Program-made: the position numbers and the translations under genes
In this document: positions 7,948 to 34,002 of the stretch, one piece after another
Numbering within the stretch: the first letter of the stretch is position 1
Layout: the number at the start of each line of letters is the position of its first letter
Source: Limnochordia bacterium
Lineage (GTDB): Bacteria; Bacillota; Limnochordia; DTU080
Direction: 5' to 3'
DNA length: 64,000 bases
Assembly: GCA_050945315.1 (NCBI GenBank)
Contig: JBMNSS010000001.1
Location: forward strand, 1,620-65,619
The notes under the pieces: generated by a model
The model's input: the letters and a program-made list of their open reading frames with translations, nothing else
The model's database searches: none
Told to the model about the DNA's origin: nothing

Positions 7948-10900
7948 TCAGAAACCAGCACCGATGCCCCAATACAGACGCCATGGCTGTGTGCCGTCCA
8001 AAGAACGGGCCAGTCCCAGACGAAGATCGCCTCTGGTTAATCCGTATCCGAGGGTCATGGTCGTTCGGGCCTCGGCTCCGACGGCGGAGACCGTTTTGAA
8101 GTCTTCGGCCTTATTTCCCGCGATGCCGCTGTCACAGAACAATGCCCAGGACACACCGTCAACAAAAACGGGGCTGTCTTGGACACCACGTTGGATAGGA
8201 AAGGCCATATACTCGACCTCGATGCTGATTTTCCCGGCCTCCTGGCCTCGAACACAGGCTACGGGAAGACCGCGAATGGCCAGATCACCTTGTGAGCCTC
8301 CTAAGAAGAAACTATCTTCGGCGGTGCTGGCTACCGCACTTAAGTCTATCAACAGGCGCAACCGCTCCGACAGTCGCTGGTTCACGGCAAGAAACAGACC
8401 GCCAGCCGTGTGGCCTCCGCCCAAACCCTGCACACCGAAAAGCTGAAGATCGCTCACCCGCTGTTGGTGAGCGTCTCCTCCGACGCCCTGAAAGCGGATT
8501 CCTAATCCGAGCTCCGAGTGAAAGCCTTCATCTTTGTAGGCACCCAGCCACACAACTCCGCTGCTCGATAAGAGAAGACCGGGCTCATTCCAGGCAATGT
8601 AAAACTCCCCTGCATTCTCGGTCCATACTTCATTCACTTCTCCATCGCTGTGCAGGAAGGGTACCGGTGAGATCATCTTCTCTACTCTTGCCGGCTGAGG
8701 CGTCGACGCGTCATTGACTCGTGACAGAACACTGCCGGAAATGCTGAGGCCCAACACGGGTCCGTTGCCCAACACATCTGAGCGGTACTCGTACTCCGTG
8801 CGATAAGAGGCAGTCTCATCCCCAAAAGAAATACCCAATGCATAGGCATGCTGCCCCAGGGCGTCAGTACCTGATGTCGAACCGCCTGTCAGCCACTGGC
8901 CTTCCAGACCGCCCCACAAAGGAAGCCAATAACGTGGGGTAAGGCTCTCTGAAGCACGGTAAGGTCGGATGATGAAGTCCTGTGGATCGACCGGACGTGC
9001 CAGTTCTTGCCAAGCTTCTTTGTCTGAGTTCTCAAGACGGCTCTTGGGCACGAACGACCACGCGGCAGCATCATCGGACGGCAAGCGAATCACCCACTCG
9101 CTGATATCGATGTCTGCGGGGGCGACGATTTCCGGCTCAGCGGGCGCCGGCGGCGGACATAACACCCACTCTTCCGGGTTCAAGGGCAAGGTCGCCATCC
9201 GGTATCCATCTGCAGAATAGGCCGAGACGAGCAGACTGCCACCATCCGGAGAGACGGAGGGAGCAAAGAATCCATATAAGGCGCGAGTAACTTGATACTG
9301 ACTGCCATCGAGAACGTCATAGGCATGAATATTGTAGATCCCTGAGTGATCAGAGGAAAAAAACAGATAGCGCCCGTCAGGAGACCAGGACGGATCCAGT
9401 TTAACCGCCGCATCATGCGTCAACCTCACAGGCGCGGCGACTGGCACCGGGGTTTCCTGAAGCATTAGCGGCAATAAGAAGAGTTCAATATCACCTGAGT
9501 GAGTACGTCCTACAAAGGCCAGATTCTCCCCGTCAGGAGACCAGGCCAAGGAGAACACCTGATCCGGTTGTTCATCGCGCGGTCGGTCGATCTCGGGGCT
9601 CCACAACACCATCGGAGTCCCTTTTTCGAGGGCGGTTAGCAGGATTAGTGACCTGTCCTCCCGACGGGAAATGAAAGCGATCCATTCACCGTCCGGCGAC
9701 ACGGTCGGAGCGTAAGCTCGGTAACCGTGGGTCAGTCTCTCTTCCTTGCCCGACCGTATATTATAGATATAAAGATCGCTCGTCAGACCTCCTTGATGGT
9801 AATCCATCTTGCCATAGACCACACCCTGACCATCAGGTGTCCATGAAAGACCGCCTGAACGGGTGACCAGTCCGTTCACCAGCTTGCGCTCTTTGTCGCC
9901 GCCAACTGTCTGGCGCAGGCGTAACGACGGCAGTACGTTCCCCCCGGAACCGTAGACAATCGCCTTTCCGTCCGGGCTCCATACGGGCCACAAAACCATC
10001 TCTCCGGTGGCCGGTATTGTCTCCACTGCGGTGATAGAGCCCACAGCCTCTCGTTGCTGTGAATAGTGTTCAAAAAGGTCGTGTTGCCAATTCAGCCACA
10101 AATCGTCAAAAGGCACCTGAAACACTTCCTTGATGACTCCATTGGCACCAAGTGATTGTCGGCTGTGCAGGCGAAAGATCTCGTTGACGGAATCCTCCCC
10201 GTAATTGCGGGCCAGATAATCAATAAACGAGTAGCCGTAGAGGTAGACTGCCGGCCCGGGATTCCATCCGCTGAGTCTGTAGTTGCCAATGACTTGATCC
10301 CACGGCGGGATACGATTCTCCAGAACCGCCGCCCGGAGAAACATGTCATAGAAGGCACCGTCTCCCCTGCCATTACCCATCAATCCTTCAGCAAAGACAG
10401 CATGACCTTCAAGGAGAGCGTGGCCGAGAAGGCTGTTGGGTGTGCCGGCCCACGGCACTTTTCCGAAAAGCTTGCGGGCTCGGTCAGCGCCTTCTGAATG
10501 CATGTCGAGTTGAAGCACATGAGCATATTCATGCAGCAGCAGTTGTTCAAACCATTCAGAATGAGTCGGGGTCAATCCGGTGTCGTAGGAGATGGTATCC
10601 GGCAATACGGGGTGAATCGTAATGTGGTTGTAGGGCGTCACACGGGCGAAAGCGTTTGCCGCGTCTGTGATATCGGCAATGACCACATGGGTCTTCTCCT
10701 CCGGAAAGTACTGCATTTTAGGTACCAGGTTACGATGGGCGTCTTCCGCCGCTATAGCCACGCGGCGAGCAAGCTGCTCTTGCCCGGGGGGGAAGTGAAT
10801 CAGAAAGTGCGGACTCTCCAGGGTGAGCCATCCGCGGGCCGGCAAAGCCGGTGGTGGCATGGCCCGTGGCAATACCGACTCGGTTGCCATCGCTGTCACA

Positions 10901-23417: not shown

Positions 23418-24023
23418 TTACAGCTGCCAAAGGCAGCGGCTCATGATCTTCCGATAGATCCTGGAATTCTGCCGAAAAGACTCGTAATCCCGTTCGGCAA
23501 GAGCTTGATCGATCGCTGCCCTGGTCAAGATGGCTTGAACGGCCAGATCAATTTGTTCCCGAACGATCTCACGCAGCACGGCATCGACGTTGGCCACCGA
23601 CCTTTCAGGTAAGCTCGGGGATGACTCCAAGACATCCAGGTACCAAGCCGGCATCGATCCGCAGAATGAAAAAGTGACGTAAAGCTCACTTCGAAAGGTG
23701 CGTAAAGGCGCTATAGCCTCCATGGGCTCGTTAACACATAAATGACGTTCACGTCGCAGCCGGCGGATAAGCTCGCCGTTGACAATACGCACTTCCTCAC
23801 GTTGGTGAACTCCCAGTTCGAGTTCGAAGCCCACGCGAGGACTCCCTAACTCCGAAACAAGCATGGTGTTTGGTAAGTACTCCCGGTTCCGCACGAAGGT
23901 GATCCGCTTGAGAAGATCCGGCGTGTCTAGTATGAACTGCAGCAAATATTTGCTCATCGGATGCTTCAAAGGAGTGCGAATGAAGTTGCGGATAGCTAAC
24001 TCTTTTAGCTTCATCTTTCTCAC
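23418..24023 (-). CDS. hypothetical protein
   Basis: 201-aa ORF with no recognisable motif; coding-like composition. It lies downstream of lepB on the same strand. Confidence 0.45.
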   Translation of the reverse strand: MRKMKLKELAIRNFIRTPLKHPMSKYLLQFILDTPDLLKRITFVRNREYLPNTMLVSELGSPRVGFELELGVHQREEVRIVNGELIRRLRRERHLCVNEPMEAIAPLRTFRSELYVTFSFCGSMPAWYLDVLESSPSLPERSVANVDAVLREIVREQIDLAVQAILTRAAIDQALAERDYESFRQNSRIYRKIMSRCLWQL

Positions 24024-24131
24024 CCCGCTGTTGGTTCATTAGAATATATGGGCCAGGAGGGGTTTACATGCCTGCAGAAGTACCATGGAAAGGTATCTCG
24101 AAAGAGTAATCGTCAAGGCGGGAGGTAGTGC

Positions 24132-24890
24132 ATGCGCGTTACGTTCTTGGGAACAGGCACATCGCATGGCATCCCAGTGATAGGTTGTGACTGTTCCGTA
24201 TGTCGCTCGCCGCTGCCGGAGAATAATAGACTGAGATCAAGCATATGGTTGAATTTCGCCGAGCGGAACGTGGTGATTGATACCGGTCCTGAATTCCGAC
24301 TGCAAGCCCTGCGCCATGGGGTGCGCCGACTGGATGCCGTGCTTTTTAGCCACGCTCATGCTGATCACATTTTTGGCTTTGATGACATCCGCCGTTTTTG
24401 CCAACTACAGGGCGAAGCAATTTCGGTGTACGCCAGTCCGGAGACGCTTGACACGCTACGCTGTGCTTTTGGCTATATATTCGATCTTGATCGCAACGAT
24501 TGGACCATCCCCCGTGCGGTGCCACATGTAATTGATGGCCCTTTCTCCCTTTTTGGCCAAGACATCGAGCCATTGACGGTGTATCATGGCAAAGCATCGG
24601 TCACGGGTTTTCGTATCGGTGACTTCGCCTATGTCACCGATTGCAGCATGATCCCGGATCAGGCGATGGCTTCTCTGCAAAACCTGGAGGTGTTGGTGTT
24701 AGGTGCATTGCGATATAAGCCGCATCACACTCACTTCAGCATCGGGGAAGCGATTCAGGCCATCGAGACCCTACAGCCCAGACGCGCCTATCTCACACAT
24801 CTGTGTCACGAAGTGGACCATGCAGAGCTTCTCGCGTCATTACCCGCCGGTGTTCAGCCTGCTTATGACGGTTTGGTTGTTGATGTATGA
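24132..24890 (+). CDS. MBL-fold metallo-hydrolase (PhnP-like)
   Basis: LFSHAHADHIFG (HxHxDH) plus downstream His/Asp ligands; 252 aa; GGAGG Shine-Dalgarno. Confidence 0.85.
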   Translation: MRVTFLGTGTSHGIPVIGCDCSVCRSPLPENNRLRSSIWLNFAERNVVIDTGPEFRLQALRHGVRRLDAVLFSHAHADHIFGFDDIRRFCQLQGEAISVYASPETLDTLRCAFGYIFDLDRNDWTIPRAVPHVIDGPFSLFGQDIEPLTVYHGKASVTGFRIGDFAYVTDCSMIPDQAMASLQNLEVLVLGALRYKPHHTHFSIGEAIQAIETLQPRRAYLTHLCHEVDHAELLASLPAGVQPAYDGLVVDV

Positions 24891-24987
24891 TTGAGTGGCT
24901 TCGAACCGATTCGGACCCGACTGAGGCGTCTTATCAGTGAGCGGGAGCAATGGGCGCGACAACGGATAGAGACCGGGAGGGATCGAA

Positions 24988-26025
24988 GTGCCTAAGAGCC
25001 ATACACGTTTAGCTGCACTTCACATACCGCATGCGGATTCGGATGATTTGCATCGCGTCTGCGAGGTGTGCATGAACTTCTCGCCGACGATAGAACCCAC
25101 TCCTCCCCATGGTATCCTTGTCGACTTTTCCGGCAGTCGTCGTCCCGATCTTTTTTTGCTCCAAAGCGAAGCGGTTGCTGCTTGCCAAAAAAACGTATTT
25201 ATCAGCATGGCTTCTACAAGGTGGGTAGCCCGCTGCGCCGTCGCATATCTACAGCGGAAGTCTGCGAGCAGTTCTTTGCCAAAGCCTTTGACCATTGCCG
25301 ACAACGGCGAAAAAGGATTTTTGGCCCCTTTGTCCGTGAGATATCTGGCGCAGGGTGAGATTGCGGATGCCGAAAGGCTGATAGAGCGTCTTTTGGATTT
25401 GGGCATCTACACCTTTGATGATCTGGCAAGCGTACCACTCAAAGATCTCACCGCCCAATTTGGCACAGACCGGGGTCCTCTTTTGCACCGTTTGGCGACA
25501 GGGGTTGATCCCCGTACAGTTCGCCCCTTATACCCTCCGCGACAGGTGGTTGCTACATTCAGCGCGGCGCCTGACAGTCCCGGTATTTTAAACGCTTACG
25601 CGATCGATCAGGTATTGATTCATCTGAGCAATGAACTGGCCGCTGATTTGGCGCAACAAGGAATGGCAGCCCGGCGGATACGGCTTGAAATCACATGTCG
25701 GAAAGACGTTTTACACTTTTCTTGTTTTCTGCGGCAGCCTGCGTTTCAACAAGAAACCCTGCTGGAGGCGGCCAGGCGATTGTGGTCTTCGGCATCTGCC
25801 ATGGATCCCGTATTGGAGCTCAAGCTCTATGGTGAGAATCTCGAGCGTCCGCGAATTGAGCAAGCGGCCATATTTGACGCCCAAACAAGTATCAACAATG
25901 AGCTGGCAACTGTGGTGCGCGCCGTGCAAAACAGATTCGGTGTGCGAGCGCTGCAAAAAGCGAACCAACTCCCTCTTTCTCGCCGAGAGTTGGTTCGCTC
26001 AATGTGGGAACGCGAAAGACTGTGA
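24988..26025 (+). CDS. imuB: ImuB-like inactive Y-family DNA polymerase homologue (N-terminal polymerase-like part only)
   Basis: N-terminus LAALHIPHA...ILVDFSGS...; the FLAPLSVRYLAQGE and ERLLDLGIYTFDDLASVPLKDLTAQFG blocks parallel mycobacterial ImuB (FLAPLSIRQLA..., LWRMGLRTIGQFAQL...FG). It lacks the Y-family catalytic DMD/SIDE acidic residues. GTG start preceded by GGGAGGG. Only 345 aa. Confidence 0.65.
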   Translation: MPKSHTRLAALHIPHADSDDLHRVCEVCMNFSPTIEPTPPHGILVDFSGSRRPDLFLLQSEAVAACQKNVFISMASTRWVARCAVAYLQRKSASSSLPKPLTIADNGEKGFLAPLSVRYLAQGEIADAERLIERLLDLGIYTFDDLASVPLKDLTAQFGTDRGPLLHRLATGVDPRTVRPLYPPRQVVATFSAAPDSPGILNAYAIDQVLIHLSNELAADLAQQGMAARRIRLEITCRKDVLHFSCFLRQPAFQQETLLEAARRLWSSASAMDPVLELKLYGENLERPRIEQAAIFDAQTSINNELATVVRAVQNRFGVRALQKANQLPLSRRELVRSMWERERL

Positions 26026-26033
26026 ACAGCTAA

Positions 26034-27308
26034 TTAGCGACCTACTCCTTTGAGAAAGTAGACCGTGTCCAGGTGAACTCGCTCAGCAACATCCACAATG
26101 TCTTTTTTCGTTACACGCTTCAGGCGGACGATCAACTCCTCGGTTGTCTCTTTGACACCCTCCATTGACCCGCTCAGGTGCGTTATCATTTGCGCCAGAG
26201 GGTTATCTTGTGTCAGCAGAGCCTGTGCGATAAGCCTACTGCGTGTCGCATTCATCTCATCATCGGAGATGTCCCCTTGGCGGATGGCATCCACCTGCTT
26301 CAGCATTATCTCTAACGCTTGATCGTAATTTTTGGGATCAATACCGGCATATGCCAGCACATACCCCTTGTTTGCGTTGTAGCCTGAGCTCGCCTGATAG
26401 GCCAGGCTGGCCTTTTCACGCACATTGACAAACAGTTTTGAGTGCACGAAACCACCCAGAACACCGTTCAAAAAGTACATGGCACAGCGTTCAGCGTCCG
26501 AATAGGTAATGTCCGTACGGAAGCCGAGCACCAACCATCCCTGCCCCATCACTTCTTCATCAACGACTGTGCGAACCTGTGCTCTTCCGGGAAGGACTAC
26601 AGTCCTGGGCAGCGCTTTGGGAGCTCTCGTGGGTAAGGAAAAGCCACCTACCACTTTTTTCAGTTCATCGCGCTCCACATCGCCCACTATATAGATATCG
26701 ATAGGGGCCTCACGAATCTGTCTTGTGTGATTGCGCAGGAGAATCTGTGGTGTTAATTCCCGTACCTGTTCTTCCGTACCGAGTTCATGGAGCCGGAACG
26801 GTTCATCGCCGTACATTTCCTCGATACAGCGCAATATGGCCCATCTGGCCTTAACATTGATCAAAGAACGAATCCGTCCCACCTGCAATTGCTTCTCTTG
26901 CTCCACGTACTCGCCGGCCAACCCCCCGTTTTCTATGACGGGCGACAGAATCACTTCTCGTAATAGCCGCAAACCCTGACTCAAGATAGGCGTACCTACA
27001 TAGCGATCACCGGGGAGGTTGAGCAGAAACCAAGAAATCTGGCGATCCCCACGCTTTTGTACGCCCGTTCCCAGATGGGCTCCGTATAACGAGGCAAGTT
27101 CTCGCTCTAAAGCCATGGCTGTGGGCCATAGAGTGTTTCCCCGTCGCAGCACCCGGGGGAGAATACCCATCGCGGCCACATTCTCCGGTGAAAGCTCATT
27201 GTGGAAAAAGACAGCCGCGCTCGTACGTTTGAAGGTGGGCACAGCGTGCACAAAGAGCCGAACCTCCGGCCCCAGCGATATTTGTTGGAACCCTTGAGTC
27301 ATGCTCAT
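26034..27308 (-). CDS. M16-family peptidase, non-catalytic partner subunit
   Basis: Insulinase-fold pattern but no HxxEH; translationally coupled to the upstream M16 gene, whose stop is 2 nt before this start. Confidence 0.8.
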   Translation of the reverse strand: MSMTQGFQQISLGPEVRLFVHAVPTFKRTSAAVFFHNELSPENVAAMGILPRVLRRGNTLWPTAMALERELASLYGAHLGTGVQKRGDRQISWFLLNLPGDRYVGTPILSQGLRLLREVILSPVIENGGLAGEYVEQEKQLQVGRIRSLINVKARWAILRCIEEMYGDEPFRLHELGTEEQVRELTPQILLRNHTRQIREAPIDIYIVGDVERDELKKVVGGFSLPTRAPKALPRTVVLPGRAQVRTVVDEEVMGQGWLVLGFRTDITYSDAERCAMYFLNGVLGGFVHSKLFVNVREKASLAYQASSGYNANKGYVLAYAGIDPKNYDQALEIMLKQVDAIRQGDISDDEMNATRSRLIAQALLTQDNPLAQMITHLSGSMEGVKETTEELIVRLKRVTKKDIVDVAERVHLDTVYFLKGVGR

Positions 27309-27309
27309 A

Positions 27310-28608
27310 TCAGTGCCCTCCTTTCAGCGGCTCCACAATGGAAACCACACGATTATCTTCTCCGATGAGCTGCTCCAGACATTTCTGGGCATCCTCAAGA
27401 CGAACCTCATCAAGCAGCGTTCTCACATCCATAAGATCTAACTCGTTAAAACGATGAGTGATGTAAACACCGGCCAATTGCTCCGGATCATCTAGTAAAG
27501 CGGAAAAGGAACCTATTTCTTGGCGACGAACGGTCTCGAAGACTTCGGCCTGCAGACCTTCTTGGCAAGCTCGCCGCAGATTGGCGGTGATTTCCGTCAC
27601 AAAAGCGTCGACATCTTCTGTTTCGCCGCTGATCCATACATAACCGATACTCCGATACGACGAGTATCCGAAACGAAAATCTTCCGTGACGATGCCTTTT
27701 TCGTACAACTGCCAATAACCCGAGTTTACTTTTCCCAAGACCGCGCTCAAAGCGAGATCAGCGGCGATAAGCTGTTTATGATAGTCAGGGCTGTCAGCCG
27801 ATAAGGTGCCTTTGAATCCCATCATCACGAGAGGTCGGGAGACCTTGAGCTCAATTCTCGTCTCCGGATGGACTACGCTGTCTGGTTCCGCGGGAATAAC
27901 TCGGCTAATCGGTCCCCGTGGTGTGTAGTCTCTTGCCGCGAGATCCTTTTCCACCATTGAAAGCACCTCGGCAAAATCCAGCTCCCCGACCACAACGAGC
28001 ATCATGTTACTGGGATGGTAAAATGTATCGTGGCATTTGTAAAGAAGCTCCTTGTTGATACGGGCAATGGAATCGGGCGAGCCAATGGTTCGTATTCTGG
28101 CAGGATGCACATGGAACATGGATTCCATGAAGTTGTAGTAGACCATTCGCGAGGGACTGTCGAGTCCCGTTTGAATCTCTTGCCCGATGATCCCTTGCTC
28201 TTTGGCGACGCTTTCATCGGTGAAATACGGATTCTGCACGAAGTGGAGCAGCAGACTGAGTCCTTCGTTGAAGCGCTCTACCGTGGTAAAGTGGTACACC
28301 GTGTAATACGATCCCGTATAGGCGTTTGTAGTCATACCCATTTGCGAGAAACGCTGTGATACATCGGTGCCATCGGGTTCCTCGAACATCTTATGTTCGA
28401 GGAAGTGAGCAATACCGTCAGGGACATTCGTCGGTTGTGACTGTCCGGGTGTTATGAAGGTCGAATCCATGCCACCGTAATTTGTGGCCAGGGCGGCAAA
28501 TTTCTGTGCAAAGCCGGGTTTAGGAAGCAAGACCACGGTCAGCCCCGAAGGCAACCTGCGCTCCAGTACTTCCTGCCCCATCACCATCCTTTTCACATTC
28601 ACAAGCAA
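27310..28608 (-). CDS. M16-family zinc peptidase, catalytic subunit
   Basis: HFLEHKMFEE (HxxEH inverted zincin motif) with the downstream E ligand region. Confidence 0.85.
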   Translation of the reverse strand: MLVNVKRMVMGQEVLERRLPSGLTVVLLPKPGFAQKFAALATNYGGMDSTFITPGQSQPTNVPDGIAHFLEHKMFEEPDGTDVSQRFSQMGMTTNAYTGSYYTVYHFTTVERFNEGLSLLLHFVQNPYFTDESVAKEQGIIGQEIQTGLDSPSRMVYYNFMESMFHVHPARIRTIGSPDSIARINKELLYKCHDTFYHPSNMMLVVVGELDFAEVLSMVEKDLAARDYTPRGPISRVIPAEPDSVVHPETRIELKVSRPLVMMGFKGTLSADSPDYHKQLIAADLALSAVLGKVNSGYWQLYEKGIVTEDFRFGYSSYRSIGYVWISGETEDVDAFVTEITANLRRACQEGLQAEVFETVRRQEIGSFSALLDDPEQLAGVYITHRFNELDLMDVRTLLDEVRLEDAQKCLEQLIGEDNRVVSIVEPLKGGH

Positions 28609-28750
28609 CGTCTCCTCCTATATGTGTTCCGCTAAACCGTATAGTGCCTCTTCTAAAGAGGATTGACCCCAGTGATCTTTTCACGGTGTTTGGCTACAAC
28701 GGCGTCTATTCCCTTCAAAAATTTCCAGGATCCGGTCATGGCAGCTTACT

Positions 28751-28800
28751 TGACGCCCCCGAACACCTGTTGTATGATGAGCGCACCAAACACCTGTTCT
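28751..28800 (+). promoter_or_regulatory. sigma-A-type promoter with two tandem GAAC-N4-GTT-type boxes (putative LexA/SOS operator)
   Basis: TTGACG (28751-56), 16 nt, TATGAT (28773-78) with an upstream TG. CGAACACCTGTTGT (28760-73) fills the spacer, and a near-identical CAAACACCTGTTCT sits at 28787-28800. Confidence 0.5.
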
Positions 28801-28815
28801 TATGTGGGGGGTGTC

Positions 28816-29070
28816 ATGCCTTTGAGCAGACTCATCAATCAACGTATCAATGCAACTTCCGACCGTCATGGGGCCCCCTTGCGTTTTTCTTGGCATACCA
28901 ACTGGCATCGTGTCACGCGCATATATGAAACATGGCGTGATACCGGCAGCTGGTGGGAAGGTGAAGCCGAAAAGGTATTTTACCTGCTACAGACCGATGA
29001 CGGCGGTACCTACGAAGTATATTTTGACCTCCAAGAAAAATCATGGTACCTTTACAAAATCATTGATTGA
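28816..29070 (+). CDS. small protein resembling the ImuB C-terminal (DnaE2/ImuA-interaction) region
   Basis: 84 aa from an ATG preceded by GGGGGGTG. W/Y-rich block WHRVTRIYETWRDTGSWWEGEAEKVFYLLQTDDGGTYEVYFDLQEKSWYLYKIID matches the pattern recalled for ImuB C-termini. Its stop is 13 nt before the dnaE2 ATG. Confidence 0.45.
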   Translation: MPLSRLINQRINATSDRHGAPLRFSWHTNWHRVTRIYETWRDTGSWWEGEAEKVFYLLQTDDGGTYEVYFDLQEKSWYLYKIID

Positions 29071-29083
29071 GACGGTGTCATCC

Positions 29084-32000
29084 ATGTATGCTCACCTGCA
29101 TACTCATTCGCCATTCTCATTTCTTGACGGCGCAGCGTCTATGGAGTCATTGCTTACTCGCGCCGCGGAGATCGGATGCCGGGCATTGGCCGTTACTGAT
29201 CACAATAATCTTTCAGTCACAGTACGCTTCCATAAATTAGCTGCTGAGATAGGCATAAAACCCATTCAAGGATGTGAAATCACTATCGATAACGGTTGTC
29301 ACCTCACCCTTCTTTGTCAAAACCGTACGGGCTATGCCAATCTCTGCCGCTTGGTTACCCGAGCTCATCTTGACGCACCGCGTGGGTTACCCCAGGTCTC
29401 CCGCAGACTTTTGGAAGAGCACAGTGAGGGCCTCATCGCTTTGTCCGGATGTCGTCACGGCGAAGTTGCCGCTTTGATGTTGCAGGGTCAAAACCGGCAG
29501 GCGCTGGAGGCGGCTTCTGCTTATGCGTCTGCCTTTCCCGGACGTTTTTATATCGAGGTTCAAGATAATCTTCTCCCTCGCACCCGCTCGCTTAATCGTC
29601 ATTTGCGTGATCTGGCAGAATATCTTGATTTGCCCATGGTAGCTACCGCCAACGTACACTATGCTTACAAAGAACAATTTCCCGTTCACGACATACTTAC
29701 GTGCGTGCGTACTTTGACCTGTCTCCAAAGCATACATCCCGCGAGACGGCTCAATGCGGAAAACTATCTCCTCACGTCGGAAGAGATGGCGGATCGTTTT
29801 CGCGATTTTCCGCAAGCGTTACGCGGCACGCTTGAGATAGCTGACCTGTGTGAGACGGCCATTCCCTTGGGTGAGCGTCTGTTTCCTTTCTTCAACACAC
29901 CTGACGGCAGCAGTGCCATTCAGTTCTTGCGGCAACTCACGTTCCAAGGTGCACAAGAGCGTTACGGATCGGTTACGGCGGCCATACGCGAAAGATTGGA
30001 ACACGAATTACGTATCATCGCCGCTCTTGATGTGGCGGACTACTTTCTCGTCGCCTGGGATGTCGCCCGTTTTGCGCGTGAACGAGGCATCTGCTATGCG
30101 GGACGCGGCTCCGCTGCGGATTCGGCCGTTGTATATTGCCTTTATATAACAAATGTTGATGCCATCAGCAGAGGTTTGCTTTTTGAGCGGTTTCTCAGTT
30201 TGGAGCGGGCTCAACAGCCGGATATCGATATCGATTTTGATGCCCGTTACCGGGATGATATAGCGCGCTATGTCTACGCCAAATATGGCGAAGATCATGT
30301 CGCCTCCGTATGCACATATCATACCTATCATGCTCGTTCGGCTTTGCGGGACTTTGGCAAAGCCATGGGCCTTCCGCTTCAAGAAGTGGAAAAAGTGGCC
30401 AAGGCGTTTCCGCATGTCCCTGCAGATGGCATACGCAAAGCATTGATTCGCTATCCCGAGCTGCAAAACAGCGGCCTGTCTTTTGAGCGCTATGAGAAGC
30501 TCTTTGACCTTGTTGAACAGGTGGCCGGTTTTCCGCGCCATATCGGTACACACTTGGGCGGCTTGGTGATCAGTAACCGCCCCCTGGTAGAAGTGAGCCC
30601 ATTGCAGATGGCCGCCAAGGGCATGCGCATCATTCAATTCGACAAAGATGACATAGAAGAACTGGGACTGATGAAACTGGATCTACTGTCACTGCGCACC
30701 TTGTCAGCCGTTCAGACTGCTATAAAAGACATTAACACCAAACAGACAGCTACAGGTGAGCCTCTCGTAGAATACGCCACAATCCCACTGGACGATGCTT
30801 ACACGTATGCAGCCCTCAATCATGGAGAGAGCATTGGTGCTTTTCAACTGGAGAGTCCCGCGCAAAGAGCGTTGCAGAGCCGCTTGGGGGCAGAAAACAT
30901 AGAAGACATTGTGGCCAGCATTGCTCTGATTCGTCCCGGACCCATACAGGGGAATATGGTCGAGCCTTTTATCGCTTACAGGAACGGCCATTGTGCTGTC
31001 AGTTACGTTCATCCTGACTTGGAGCCCATTCTCGCCAAGACCTATGGTGTCGTTCTTTTCCAGGAGCAGGTGATCGAGATTGCGGTCAAGATCGCCGGCT
31101 TCAGCCCCGGTGAGGCCGATCAGCTGCGCAAAGCGATGACTCATTTTCGCTCACAAAAAAAGATGGATCAGCTTGGACGGGAGTTCATAGCCAAGGCCAC
31201 AAAGCGCGGTGTTGACCAAGAGGTGGCCGAAACTCTGTATTCTTACATTGTCAGCTATGCAGGTTATGGTTTTTGCGAAGCTCATGCCGCGGCTTTTTCC
31301 GATACAGCCTATAAAACGGCCTATCTGGTAACTCATTACCCGGCTGAGTTTTTTGCAGCCATTCTCAGTCACCAGCCAATGGGCTATTATCCGCCGGCTA
31401 CGATCGTTGCAGAAGCCAAACGCCGAGGTGTGCGCATTCTGCCTCCGGACGTGAACAGAAGCGGGCTGCGCTTCACCGTAGAGAACGGAGCCATCAGGGT
31501 CTCATTGACACAGGTGAAAGGTTCATCACCTGCCATAGCTCGATCAGTGATCTCCTCCAGAGCGGAAAGCCCGTTTCAATCCTTCAGGGACTTTTGCCGA
31601 CGCGTTCATCTCCCGCGCGATGTCATAAAAAACTTGATTCAGGCGGGAGCATTTGATACGTTGTATGCCAACAGGCGCCAGTTGCTCTGGCAGCTCCAAG
31701 AGACTCTGGCCATGTCCGGAGAAAAGGGGCAACCTGCATTGCCTTTCGGATCGGAGCGCGGCGAGATCCGCCAAGAGCTATCTGATTATCCGGCGTTTGA
31801 AAAAGCGATACATGAGGTGACTCTGCTCGGGTTCTCTCCCGAAAAGCATCTTATGCAATTTTTCCGTCCGCAACTGGTGCAACGCGGCATAAAAACCTGC
31901 GGTGAAATAAGCAGTGGTCACGTGGAAGGTGCGGTTGGGGTAGCGGGCATAGTGATTCGCCCACACCGACCTCCGACCAAGAGCGGACGCACCGTAGTCT

Positions 32001-32179
32001 TCCTCGGTTTGGAAGACGAGTTCGGCCTTTGCGATATCACCATATTTGAAGATGTCTACAAGCGATATGCACGCGAGATCTTCCATTCTCCGGCGTTGAC
32101 GGTGTGGGGGCGCATCTCGCGACGTGGGAAAGGGATCAGTGTGATCGCCGACCGTGTTAAACCTCTGCTGATCGGGTGA
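29084..32179 (+). CDS. dnaE2: DnaE-type DNA polymerase III alpha, short (DnaE2/ImuC-like, 1031 aa)
   Basis: PHP domain starts MYAHLHTHSPFSFLDGAA; polymerase palm/fingers motifs are present. The ~1030-aa length suggests an error-prone DnaE2 rather than the replicative DnaE1. The in-frame 78-codon upstream extension (from 28850) is rejected because the PHP domain begins at the Met. Confidence 0.85.
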   Translation: MYAHLHTHSPFSFLDGAASMESLLTRAAEIGCRALAVTDHNNLSVTVRFHKLAAEIGIKPIQGCEITIDNGCHLTLLCQNRTGYANLCRLVTRAHLDAPRGLPQVSRRLLEEHSEGLIALSGCRHGEVAALMLQGQNRQALEAASAYASAFPGRFYIEVQDNLLPRTRSLNRHLRDLAEYLDLPMVATANVHYAYKEQFPVHDILTCVRTLTCLQSIHPARRLNAENYLLTSEEMADRFRDFPQALRGTLEIADLCETAIPLGERLFPFFNTPDGSSAIQFLRQLTFQGAQERYGSVTAAIRERLEHELRIIAALDVADYFLVAWDVARFARERGICYAGRGSAADSAVVYCLYITNVDAISRGLLFERFLSLERAQQPDIDIDFDARYRDDIARYVYAKYGEDHVASVCTYHTYHARSALRDFGKAMGLPLQEVEKVAKAFPHVPADGIRKALIRYPELQNSGLSFERYEKLFDLVEQVAGFPRHIGTHLGGLVISNRPLVEVSPLQMAAKGMRIIQFDKDDIEELGLMKLDLLSLRTLSAVQTAIKDINTKQTATGEPLVEYATIPLDDAYTYAALNHGESIGAFQLESPAQRALQSRLGAENIEDIVASIALIRPGPIQGNMVEPFIAYRNGHCAVSYVHPDLEPILAKTYGVVLFQEQVIEIAVKIAGFSPGEADQLRKAMTHFRSQKKMDQLGREFIAKATKRGVDQEVAETLYSYIVSYAGYGFCEAHAAAFSDTAYKTAYLVTHYPAEFFAAILSHQPMGYYPPATIVAEAKRRGVRILPPDVNRSGLRFTVENGAIRVSLTQVKGSSPAIARSVISSRAESPFQSFRDFCRRVHLPRDVIKNLIQAGAFDTLYANRRQLLWQLQETLAMSGEKGQPALPFGSERGEIRQELSDYPAFEKAIHEVTLLGFSPEKHLMQFFRPQLVQRGIKTCGEISSGHVEGAVGVAGIVIRPHRPPTKSGRTVVFLGLEDEFGLCDITIFEDVYKRYAREIFHSPALTVWGRISRRGKGISVIADRVKPLLIG

Positions 32180-32260
32180 AGTAACGTCGTACAGGCGTGT
32201 CGGCGGCCCGCTTCGGGTGGACCGCCGATATCATCATTGCGTCACATCCAGGGCAGCGAT

Positions 32261-33088
32261 CTAATACACACCTATTTCACGCAAGTATTCAAGGGAGCGC
32301 TGGACCCGGCCGTGATGCAAATCCAAAGTCCGCTCCTCGCCCTCGATTCCTTCCAGCTCCAGGCTGAAGGGACCGTAGAATCCGGCCTGATCAAAGACTC
32401 GGAAGATGGCGGGAAAGTCAATGCTTCCCTCACCCAAGGCCGGGAAGTACCAGTCCTTATGTCTGCGGCGACTGTCCTTGAGATGGGCATGCACCACGTA
32501 CTCAACCAATCCCTCAAGTTCGGCTACGATGTCAATGTCTTCGTTGTAGTAATACAGATTGGCGGTGTCAAAATTGATCCGGATATTACTGTGCTTCAGA
32601 TCGCGCATGGTCTGCAGTCCCCCTGCCGCATCGGGAACCAGGGGCGGATGAGTCTCCAGACAGATGATCATCCCACGAACCAGGGCATACTCGGCCAGCT
32701 TCAGAAGGTTATCATAGACCGTGGATGAACGTTCCGGTGCTGAAACCGTATAAAAACGCACTCCGAGTTCTTCGGCGATGTCCATCTGCCGCTTAAGAAT
32801 CTCAACGCCTTCGTCGGTGCGAAGGTCACCGTGGCCAAAGGCTGAGATAATGCGTATTTCATGCTCTTTCGCCAGATTCTTAAACTCCTCCAACTGTTCA
32901 GGTGTAGTGCGTTCGCCGATCATGCTGAGAGGATGTCCTCCCGGCAAAGGCTTCACATCCGGAGCCGGCACTGACCACAATCCGAGTTCCATGTGTTTCA
33001 AACCCAGTTTCGCCGCTCCCAGCAAGGTTTCCCTGGCACCAAACCGTCCATAGGAATTGGTGAACACTTCAAAGACGCGCTGCAACAT
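32261..33088 (-). CDS. sugar phosphate isomerase/epimerase (xylose-isomerase-like TIM barrel)
   Basis: 275 aa with TIM-barrel family His/Glu/Asp metal ligands; second paralogue in the window (compare 13155-13922). Confidence 0.8.
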   Translation of the reverse strand: MLQRVFEVFTNSYGRFGARETLLGAAKLGLKHMELGLWSVPAPDVKPLPGGHPLSMIGERTTPEQLEEFKNLAKEHEIRIISAFGHGDLRTDEGVEILKRQMDIAEELGVRFYTVSAPERSSTVYDNLLKLAEYALVRGMIICLETHPPLVPDAAGGLQTMRDLKHSNIRINFDTANLYYYNEDIDIVAELEGLVEYVVHAHLKDSRRRHKDWYFPALGEGSIDFPAIFRVFDQAGFYGPFSLELEGIEGEERTLDLHHGRVQRSLEYLREIGVY

Positions 33089-33264
33089 ATATCCCCCTAT
33101 TCTCGCTCTGGACTCATGTCTATTCTTTCGTCAATCCTATCTGGGCTCCTTGTTATTCACGCCAAGCAAAGCGAAGCATCTCACTCAGGGGCAGGAATAC
33201 TCCGCTGTTTCAGCGAACAGGAGTCACGAATAAAGCCCTATTGTCTAGGAGGCTTGAGTCGTCT

Positions 33265-34002
33265 ATGGTGCTCATGTCGAATAACAGGCGGACACCCTTC
33301 GCTTGCCACATTGCTTTTCTCCTCTGTGTGCTTATCATCGCCATTAGTATGCCTTTGCTTGCTGCGACGCGGGCACCGGCTACAAGCAAGGCTATGCCTA
33401 CCCGAAATGCTCCGAGCATAGCCGCCATATTACATAACGTTGAGAACTGTTTTTCCGAAATCAAGGATCTCACCGGTGTCGTCGACCTTGAGCAGTACAG
33501 CACTGATGGTTCGGTCGTTCAAGTTCAGACGACGGTTCAGGCTGTATTACCCAGCTTATTGCGCTTGGACTTCGTAAAGCCGGAGACTTTTGCGGGCACG
33601 TTTTACGTCCTCGACCGTAACACAAATCAGATAATGCAGTATTCACCCATCACCGAGCAGGTGATCGTCTCCTCCATAGAGCAGACACTGTCCGAGCGAT
33701 TTGTGCCTACAACTGTAGAGCAGTTGTTCAGCCTTCCCTCACCTGAAGACTACAACCTTAGCGTGCTTTCCACCGAACAGCATTTGGTCGGTGTCTTGGC
33801 CAAGGCCAAGAACGATCCCGCGTCTCCTTACTTCCATTTTTGGATCGACCAAGACACCTGGATAGTCTCGAGAATGCACGTTTTTGAAGCTCAGGGGCAA
33901 CCCCTTTTCACGATTCGGCTGCGTGATGTCAAGATCAACCGCAGTCTTGTCGAGGCTCAACTGAAGAGACTGCCTGCCGGAGCCGTCACGGTCTATCGTT
34001 GA
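33265..34002 (+). CDS. secreted LolA-like/DUF4367-like protein
   Basis: Signal peptide HIAFLLCVLIIAISMPLLAA, then an all-beta LolA-like pattern; AGGAGG Shine-Dalgarno 9 nt before the ATG at 33265. Confidence 0.5.
   Translation: MVLMSNNRRTPFACHIAFLLCVLIIAISMPLLAATRAPATSKAMPTRNAPSIAAILHNVENCFSEIKDLTGVVDLEQYSTDGSVVQVQTTVQAVLPSLLRLDFVKPETFAGTFYVLDRNTNQIMQYSPITEQVIVSSIEQTLSERFVPTTVEQLFSLPSPEDYNLSVLSTEQHLVGVLAKAKNDPASPYFHFWIDQDTWIVSRMHVFEAQGQPLFTIRLRDVKINRSLVEAQLKRLPAGAVTVYR

Follow-up and report, generated by a model that had tools for sequence, protein, structure and literature searches.

In the canonical mutasome, composed of ImuA (or ImuA'), ImuB, and DnaE2 in Mycobacterium tuberculosis, Caulobacter, and Pseudomonas, ImuB combines a dead Y-family polymerase domain, a clamp-binding motif, a RecA-NT region, and the ImuB-C domain, and its C-terminal region binds both DnaE2 and ImuA. 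The ImuB-C family was named by Aravind et al. (2013; PMC3765255), its hallmarks being a mostly beta structure of about 80 residues that has a C-terminal tryptophan as a conserved feature and lacks any pattern of catalytic residues; a 2026 survey in Nucleic Acids Research (PMC12926913) described it as a beta-barrel with a novel fold that does not resemble the SH3-like barrel found in UmuD'/YqjX. Standalone ImuB-C proteins are encoded beside DnaE2, with or without an inactive DinB (PMC3765255). In Kyrpidia tusciae, an inactive Y-family polymerase (iPolY), a standalone ImuB-C, and DnaE2 form an operon (PMC6511836; Timinskas and Venclovas 2019), and the 'DnaE2X' module has been described as a split ImuB (PMC12926913); in split modules, RecA has been suggested to replace ImuA (PMC6511836). 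Among versions of the split module, genetic evidence exists for just one, the imuY–imuB-C–dnaE2 cassette of Deinococcus: in Deinococcus deserti, ultraviolet mutagenesis requires ImuY, DnaE2, and RecA, and the cassette is controlled by RecA and LexA (PMC8072749). The present analysis concerns an 84-codon open reading frame (ORF) directly upstream of dnaE2 in a 64-kb stretch of DNA from a Limnochordia bacterium (contig JBMNSS010000001.1), referred to here as the window.

The 84-codon ORF is a real, conserved gene, imuB-C, and an ordinary member of an already published family and module type. Together with a dead Y-family gene and dnaE2, it very probably constitutes a split-ImuB mutagenesis module, of the kind described as iPolY–ImuB-C–DnaE2(–RecA) and, in Deinococcus, as imuY–imuB-C–dnaE2. 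The sole local departure from the known module is a lineage-specific gene order. The genes concerned are as follows.

24988 to 26025, + strand: inactive Y-family homologue (iPolY/ImuY-like, the 'N-terminal half' of a split ImuB), 345 amino acids (Pfam, AlphaFold2 [AF2], and alignment)
26034 to 28608, − strand: two M16 peptidase genes, between the Y-family gene and imuB-C–dnaE2 (Pfam)
28816 to 29070, + strand: imuB-C, standalone ImuB C-terminal domain protein (DUF6504), 84 amino acids (Pfam, family clusters, substitution rates, AF2, and invariant residues)
29084 to 32179, + strand: dnaE2, error-prone C-family DNA polymerase, 1031 amino acids (Pfam, NCBIfam, and relatives)

The locus has the same three components as the Kyrpidia tusciae type, 'DnaE2X', and Syntrophomonas wolfei Swol_1669 (PMC3765255, PMC6511836, PMC12926913), namely a dead Y-family protein with a RecA-NT motif, an ImuB-C protein of about 80 residues, and DnaE2, and also resembles these systems in having imuB-C directly before dnaE2, no imuA nearby, and LexA-type boxes, which in the window are candidates. 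In contrast to these modules, the window places the gene for the Y-family scaffold outside the operon, 2.8 kb upstream beyond the two M16 genes; its boxes, each with a mismatch, precede imuB-C rather than the Y-family gene, and its Y-family protein is N-terminally reduced, with about 68 residues deleted and a length of only 345 residues. With the Deinococcus cassette it shares an ImuB-C gene of about 80 codons lying between or beside an inactive Y-family gene and dnaE2, as well as the absence of imuA. RecA/LexA control, as in that cassette, may also apply to the window, where LexA-like boxes suggest it; whereas lexA belongs to the Deinococcus operon and the genes there are contiguous, the window has no lexA among its scanned ORFs and its cassette is split. 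Compared with the canonical mutasome, the window encodes the same ImuB modules divided between two polypeptides and has no ImuA gene among the scanned ORFs, and fused ImuB-like proteins do not carry the invariant C-terminal aspartate of the standalone proteins. [quoted passage not shown] UmuD' (Pol V) and YolD/YqjX are likewise small, beta-rich accessory subunits of SOS-induced mutagenic polymerases that also use RecA, but they belong to a different family and fold.

The imuB-C frame runs from an ATG at 28816 to a TGA at 29068–29070, ending 13 nucleotides before the dnaE2 ATG at 29084, as the original prediction had placed it, and encodes MPLSRLINQRINATSDRHGAPLRFSWHTNWHRVTRIYETWRDTGSWWEGEAEKVFYLLQTDDGGTYEVYFDLQEKSWYLYKIID (MPLSRLINQ...LYKIID). 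In the mechanical ORF list it is present only within a 135-residue ORF (28663 to 29070, TTG start), which had also been correctly described. Because the list holds 66 ORFs of at least 50 residues within 10 kb, a length of 84 codons is not significant by itself, and the status of the frame as a gene requires other evidence. The ratio of nonsynonymous to synonymous substitution rates (dN/dS) for the 84 codons is 0.11 against L001 (88% identical) and 0.15 against L010 (71% identical), with changes concentrated at third codon positions, so that the coding-pattern check proposed for the frame yields purifying selection. The ORF had been called unannotated, which holds for the ORF list underlying that description but not for public gene calls, in which the exact 84-residue product already appears on a Logan contig. 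Gene callers do find imuB-C, on this contig and in relatives, contrary to the expectation that such genes are easily missed. A word-indexed search returned three close relatives, one of them an 88%-identical, 84-residue 'hypothetical protein' from an NCBI Firmicutes metagenome-assembled genome.

Against Pfam, the product matches DUF6504 (PF20114) over residues 13–83 (E = 4e-10; 40.3 bits, gathering cut-off 24.2), and a precomputed PF20114 match is also present on the proteins of close relatives. A profile search of 1.84 billion representative sequences yielded 368 representative clusters at E <= 1e-3. Among the 150 clusters listed, nearly all proteins are 75–95 residues long, and three are long proteins in which the domain occurs only at the extreme C-terminus (E = 2e-7 to 1.5e-11).

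P0143, 480 amino acids: profile match at residues 405–476; DUF6504 at 29.7 bits (cut-off 24.2)
P0045, 403 amino acids: profile match at residues 324–397; DUF6504 at 24.2 bits (cut-off 24.2)
P0073, 398 amino acids: profile match at residues 321–394; DUF6504 at 23.9 bits (cut-off 24.2)

Each of the three carries IMS and/or IMS_C in addition to the C-terminal DUF6504, which is the architecture of ImuB. Since the profile matches the C-termini of ImuB-type proteins, the window protein is the standalone form of the ImuB C-terminal domain; the suggestion of a small translesion polymerase accessory, with an ImuB C-terminal piece as one option, was thus well founded.

The AF2 model of the product is of high confidence (predicted local distance difference test [pLDDT], 89.3) and all-beta with six strands, in agreement with the beta-barrel described for ImuB-C in the 2026 survey. 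W46, W47, W77, and D84 are invariant in 60 aligned family sequences and are all present in the window protein; aromatic and acidic residues predominate among the conserved positions (W40, W46, W47, E50, W77, and D84), with no evident catalytic set. The family has a median isoelectric point (pI) of 6.7, with 33 of the 60 proteins acidic, and the window protein has a pI of 5.9 and a net charge of −2. Searches of PDB sequences with narrow and broad imuB-C family profiles gave nothing meaningful, and NCBIfam contains no model for the 84-residue protein. All 60 aligned standalone proteins end in an aspartate immediately before the stop codon (codon 84 in the window, 29065–29067), and this residue is absent from the three fused ImuB-type proteins. 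Its strict conservation suggests that the free C-terminus of ImuB-C matters functionally.

The Shine–Dalgarno sequence that had been proposed is present upstream of the ATG, and the short distance to dnaE2 suggests co-translation.

28806 to 28813, + strand: ribosome-binding site GGGGGGTG, read from the sequence, 2 nucleotides before ATG 28816 and 8 nucleotides before TTG 28822
29071 to 29083, + strand: 13-nucleotide spacer between imuB-C and dnaE2, read from the sequence, with GGTG 6 nucleotides before the dnaE2 ATG

In L010, the aligned GAGGTG is retained; the equivalent of the ATG is absent, and the TTG matching 28822 is kept, 8 nucleotides past the conserved GAGGTG/GGGGTG. Initiation of imuB-C may therefore occur at TTG 28822, with a product of 82 residues. 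The family N-terminus (MSRLI...) aligns with the ATG 28816 start in the 60-sequence alignment. The 135-residue extension is not coding, because it would traverse the promoter described below and the sequence upstream of the −35 hexamer is unrelated in L010. In the 71%-identical relative, a public call of 143 residues (P0002; L007 232–663 / L010 7818–8249) reaches too far in the 5' direction: judging from the family alignment and from the conserved ribosome-binding site, it should start at the TTG, giving about 82 residues.

The second component of the module, the 345-residue protein, matches Pfam IMS_C and IMS_HHH_1 (the Y-family thumb domain). All 50 best PDB matches listed for its AF2 model (pLDDT 86.4) are Y-family polymerases (best E = 1e-18). 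Its active site was compared with those of three Y-family proteins that contain the full IMS set with intact DLDAF and SIDEAFLD motifs, two of them labelled Pol IV. Relative to these active-type proteins, the window protein lacks the first catalytic aspartate motif together with about 68 fingers-region residues, and the SIDEAFLD position reads PPHGILVD. All three catalytic carboxylates (Asp, Asp, and Glu) are absent, and the alignment thus identifies the protein as catalytically dead. Three further elements lie in the C-terminal part of the gene.

25861 to 25878, + strand: clamp-binding-like motif QAAIFD, within the 345-residue Y-family gene
25900 to 25956, + strand: RecA-NT-like motif ELATVVRAVQNRFGVRALQ, residues 305–323, aligning with L..a...l..rFG of 43 homologues and of Pol IV-type proteins
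25969 to 26022, + strand: conserved C-terminal tail LPLSRRELVRSMWERERL, the last 18 codons, with family pattern RRE..L..WDPWR

The RecA-NT-like region is helical in the AF2 model (helix 301–317); how well it matches RecA itself was assessed visually, with the motif from PMC6511836 as the reference. The RRE..L..WDPWR tail, which follows the RecA-NT region, is strongly conserved in dead Y-family partners of standalone ImuB-C and is absent, in the alignment, from the three active Pol IV-type proteins and from the fused ImuB-like P0143. The tail could be a docking site for free ImuB-C.

The third component, DnaE2, contains the complete set of DnaE domains in Pfam: PHP, DNA_pol3_alpha, finger, HHH_6, and OB. 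The DnaE2 proteins of relatives have the same ATG start.

To place these genes in a comparative context, a genome collection was scanned with a 10-sequence alignment as the query, which gave 60 loci, 59 of them with a clear imuB-C. The loci are almost all of Bacillota type (Limnochordia, Syntrophomonadaceae, Thermincola, Symbiobacterium, Ammonifex, and Phosphitispora), the closest being 'Clostridia bacterium DTU080' (88%) and a Limnochordia genome (71%). The original prediction had proposed a search for homologues beside dnaE2 in other genomes, and of the 54 loci long enough to be evaluated, 51 indeed have dnaE2 as the next gene in the same orientation, with a median gap of 42 nucleotides across those 51 genomes. 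In 43 of 59 loci, the gene immediately upstream of imuB-C, often overlapping it, is homologous to the window's dead Y-family gene. In seven more (L015, L029, L034, L038, L040, L041, and L046), the upstream ORF has just 167–192 codons, and four of the seven match IMS_C only; these ORFs are either extremely reduced scaffolds or frameshifted genes. In 39 of the 59 genomes, the 1.5 kb upstream of imuB-C contain a perfect GAAC-N4-GTTC box, which in most of them lies at a distance of about 1.0–1.4 kb, at the beginning of the upstream Y-family gene. The positions of the boxes and of the Y-family genes indicate that the usual order is LexA box, iPolY, imuB-C, and dnaE2.

In the window, imuB-C and dnaE2 are contiguous, and the Y-family gene is found 2.8 kb upstream past the M16 pair, rather than in a single three-gene operon. 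The M16 pair separates the Y-family gene from imuB-C–dnaE2 in the window and in all close relatives (L001–L010). In L010 (4469–8000), a further 3.5 kb, including a gene for a helix-turn-helix protein, is inserted before imuB-C, with retention of the promoter and of box 2 described below.

The promoter proposed upstream of the ORF was recovered as the best match in the 9.5 kb scanned, and two LexA-like boxes accompany it. The box core was defined as GAAC-N4-GTTC (eight fixed bases), the Bacillota-type operator being CGAAC-N4-GTTCG.

28750 to 28778, + strand: sigma-70-like promoter TTGACG-17-TATGAT of the imuB-C–dnaE2 unit, the best match in 24000–33500 (10/12)
28760 to 28773, no strand assigned: LexA-like (Cheo-type) box 1, CGAACACCTGTTGT, in the promoter spacer and abutting the −10 hexamer; one core mismatch
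28787 to 28800, no strand assigned: LexA-like box 2, CAAACACCTGTTCT, downstream of the −10 hexamer, near the expected transcription start; one core mismatch

The −35 and −10 hexamers are conserved in L001, L003, L004, L007, and L010. Box 1 is conserved in L001 and degenerate in L010; box 2 differs by at most one base in all five of these relatives. The two boxes hold the window's only two exact copies of AACACCTGTT, and perfect boxes with the inner sequence of box 2 (CGAACACCTGTTCG) head the operon in L061 and L065. By these features, the two boxes are candidate LexA operators at the promoter.

Based on these data and on related systems, a simple model would suggest the following course of events. 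DNA damage would lead to RecA-stimulated cleavage of LexA, and the promoter at which the boxes are observed would be de-repressed. Given the observed gene arrangement, one transcript would then provide both ImuB-C and DnaE2. ImuB-C would dock on the PHP domain of DnaE2, as expected from published AlphaFold models of ImuB and of modules of this kind, and the dead polymerase, in which the corresponding motifs are observed, would supply a beta-clamp motif, a RecA-binding RecA-NT helix, and the C-terminal tail to its presumed partners. DnaE2 could then gain control of stalled forks for the error-prone copying of damaged DNA. The role of ImuB-C is most likely that of a small adaptor on the DnaE2 PHP domain, linking DnaE2 to the dead-polymerase/RecA/clamp scaffold. 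In models of the M. tuberculosis mutasome, the contact between ImuB-C and the DnaE2 PHP domain is the most extensive ImuB–DnaE2 interface, and confident models of the complex were obtained for all 11 module types (PMC12926913). The scaffold's RecA-NT binds RecA, in place of ImuA, in the published description (PMC6511836), and by analogy the window's scaffold would bind the beta clamp. Mutagenesis induced by damage is driven by DnaE2 cassettes, to which the emergence of drug resistance in pathogens is also due. The main value of the assignment is correct annotation, including recognition of the 345-residue gene 2.8 kb upstream as the scaffold partner of imuB-C.

Several points weigh against this interpretation. 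The binding steps are taken from published models of related systems, and imuB-C itself was not among the knockouts in the Deinococcus genetics (PMC8072749). The best NCBIfam match of DnaE2, NF004225 'error-prone DNA polymerase', scores 923.8 bits, below its cut-off of 939, and the DnaE1 model scores 903. Each LexA-like box carries one core mismatch, no exact GAAC-N4-GTTC occurs anywhere in the 64-kb window, and the 14-nucleotide consensus at two mismatches is not enriched in the window compared with shuffled sequences; the claim for LexA boxes therefore rests on their position, duplication, and conservation and on the related operons. Neither the scaffold gene nor the metallo-beta-lactamase-fold gene that precedes it showed any box-like sequence in its upstream region, and because the scaffold gene is without a recognisable box and 2.8 kb away across two opposite-strand genes, its co-regulation with imuB-C–dnaE2 is not evident. 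Finally, neither recA, lexA, nor imuA is present among the window ORFs scanned, a scan from which about 14 smaller ORFs, mostly at 53–64 kb, were left out.

A different function has been put forward for the family, in which ImuB-C mainly senses or binds damaged DNA and guides repair enzymes to lesions (Aravind et al. 2013, PMC3765255). DnaE2 is not the partner in every case, since standalone ImuB-C genes are also found beside genes for Pol IV, Ku/ligase, SplB photolyase, and SRAP (PMC3765255). In the present set of loci, L013, L040, and L065 contain imuB-C without an adjacent dnaE2. However, the family is not basic, as its isoelectric points show, dnaE2 follows in nearly all evaluable loci of this subfamily, and the published complex models put ImuB-C on the DnaE2 PHP domain (PMC12926913). 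As the main function of the window protein, damage sensing is accordingly considered improbable, although the roles of damage sensor and DnaE2 adaptor are not mutually exclusive. The resemblance to a YolD- or UmuD'-type small subunit, as in Gram-positive Pol V-like systems, is limited to a small, beta-rich protein encoded beside a translesion polymerase gene in a Bacillota-type genome. The YolD-like option of the original prediction finds no counterpart in Pfam, where neither YolD (PF08863) nor Peptidase_S24 matches even at E <= 1 and DUF6504 is the only match; moreover, the partners here are DnaE2 and a dead Y-family protein rather than an active YqjW/UvrX polymerase, and the ImuB-C barrel is dissimilar to the SH3-like barrel of UmuD'/YqjX (PMC12926913). 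Such an identity is hardly credible.

Two further explanations would deny the ORF the status of an intact gene. A separation of scaffold and imuB-C by two opposite-strand genes in this lineage only, together with the existence of fused versions (P0045, P0073, and P0143), might be expected if the ORF were the decaying remnant of a full-length imuB disrupted by a rearrangement that inserted the M16 genes. But standalone genes with a start and a ribosome-binding site of their own, which usually overlap or abut the Y-family gene, are the rule across the 59 genomes and hence normal in the clade rather than broken fragments; the low dN/dS reflects continuing selection, with no frameshifts or stops seen in close relatives; length and all invariant residues are intact; and the scaffold gene is not truncated but retains at its end the conserved tail that is normal in the family. 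Decay of a fused gene is thus very unlikely. Still less plausible is that the frame is not translated as a separate protein, being either a chance ORF in the dnaE2 leader or part of a DnaE2 that starts at ATG 28850. In the ORF list of the window, the frame of dnaE2 extends without a stop back to 28850, and chance ORFs of similar size are many. The start at 28850, which had been named as an alternative to be checked, is nevertheless excluded by a stop in L001 upstream of the equivalent of 29084, by the PHP domain beginning at residue 4 from ATG 29084, and by the 1031-residue length of DnaE2 in relatives, and the 84-codon frame is under purifying selection and a member of DUF6504, with no Rfam family matched within 28400–29300.

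An extension of the split-module interpretation is that the cassette of this Limnochordia-like lineage consists of two separately controlled units, that the scaffold tail docks ImuB-C, and that the C-terminal aspartate is a functional contact. Taken jointly, these proposals are tentative and rather unlikely to hold. If they did, the scaffold would be constitutive and just ImuB-C and DnaE2 would be damage-induced, providing a two-tier control of assembly, and the invariant aspartate of ImuB-C would make its contact, for example, towards the metal site of the DnaE2 PHP domain. As a naturally uncoupled arrangement, the locus could help to distinguish the contribution of the scaffold from that of the small subunit; the current picture is unchanged.

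A gene of metallo-beta-lactamase fold (24132–24890) lies on the same strand as the scaffold gene, 97 nucleotides upstream, and is conserved in relatives, where Anti-Pycsar_Apyc1 is among its precomputed Pfam matches. It is this gene, rather than imuB-C–dnaE2, that may share a transcript with the scaffold gene. The M16 peptidases were considered as functional partners and rejected, as they are absent from all 49 more distant loci (L011–L067) and are set off from imuB-C by a further 3.5 kb in L010; metallopeptidases near some imuB-C genes were remarked on by Aravind et al. (PMC3765255). An independent case of uncoupling of the window type appears to be L023, a metagenome-assembled genome of Thermincola ferriacetica, in which a perfect box, CGAACATACGTTCG, is found 52 nucleotides before imuB-C, near position 7950, and the Y-family homologue (170–1129) about 7 kb away. 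The rest of the scanned window is ordinary chromosome, with genes for a hydrogenase, BipA, a penicillin-binding protein, and ribosomal protein S4, as well as rpoA, adk, and map.

Downstream of the module, a gene for a xylose-isomerase-like TIM-barrel protein (AP_endonuc_2, a family that includes endonuclease IV; 32261–33088, − strand) converges on the end of dnaE2, and this adjacency is kept in all close relatives. Among the three loci in which imuB-C has no adjacent dnaE2 (L013, L040, and L065), L013 (47–1860) consists of iPolY, imuB-C, and then an AP_endonuc_2 gene 61% identical to the one that follows dnaE2 in the window, and looks as if dnaE2 had been cleanly lost. A repair-related link of the AP_endonuc_2 gene is possible.

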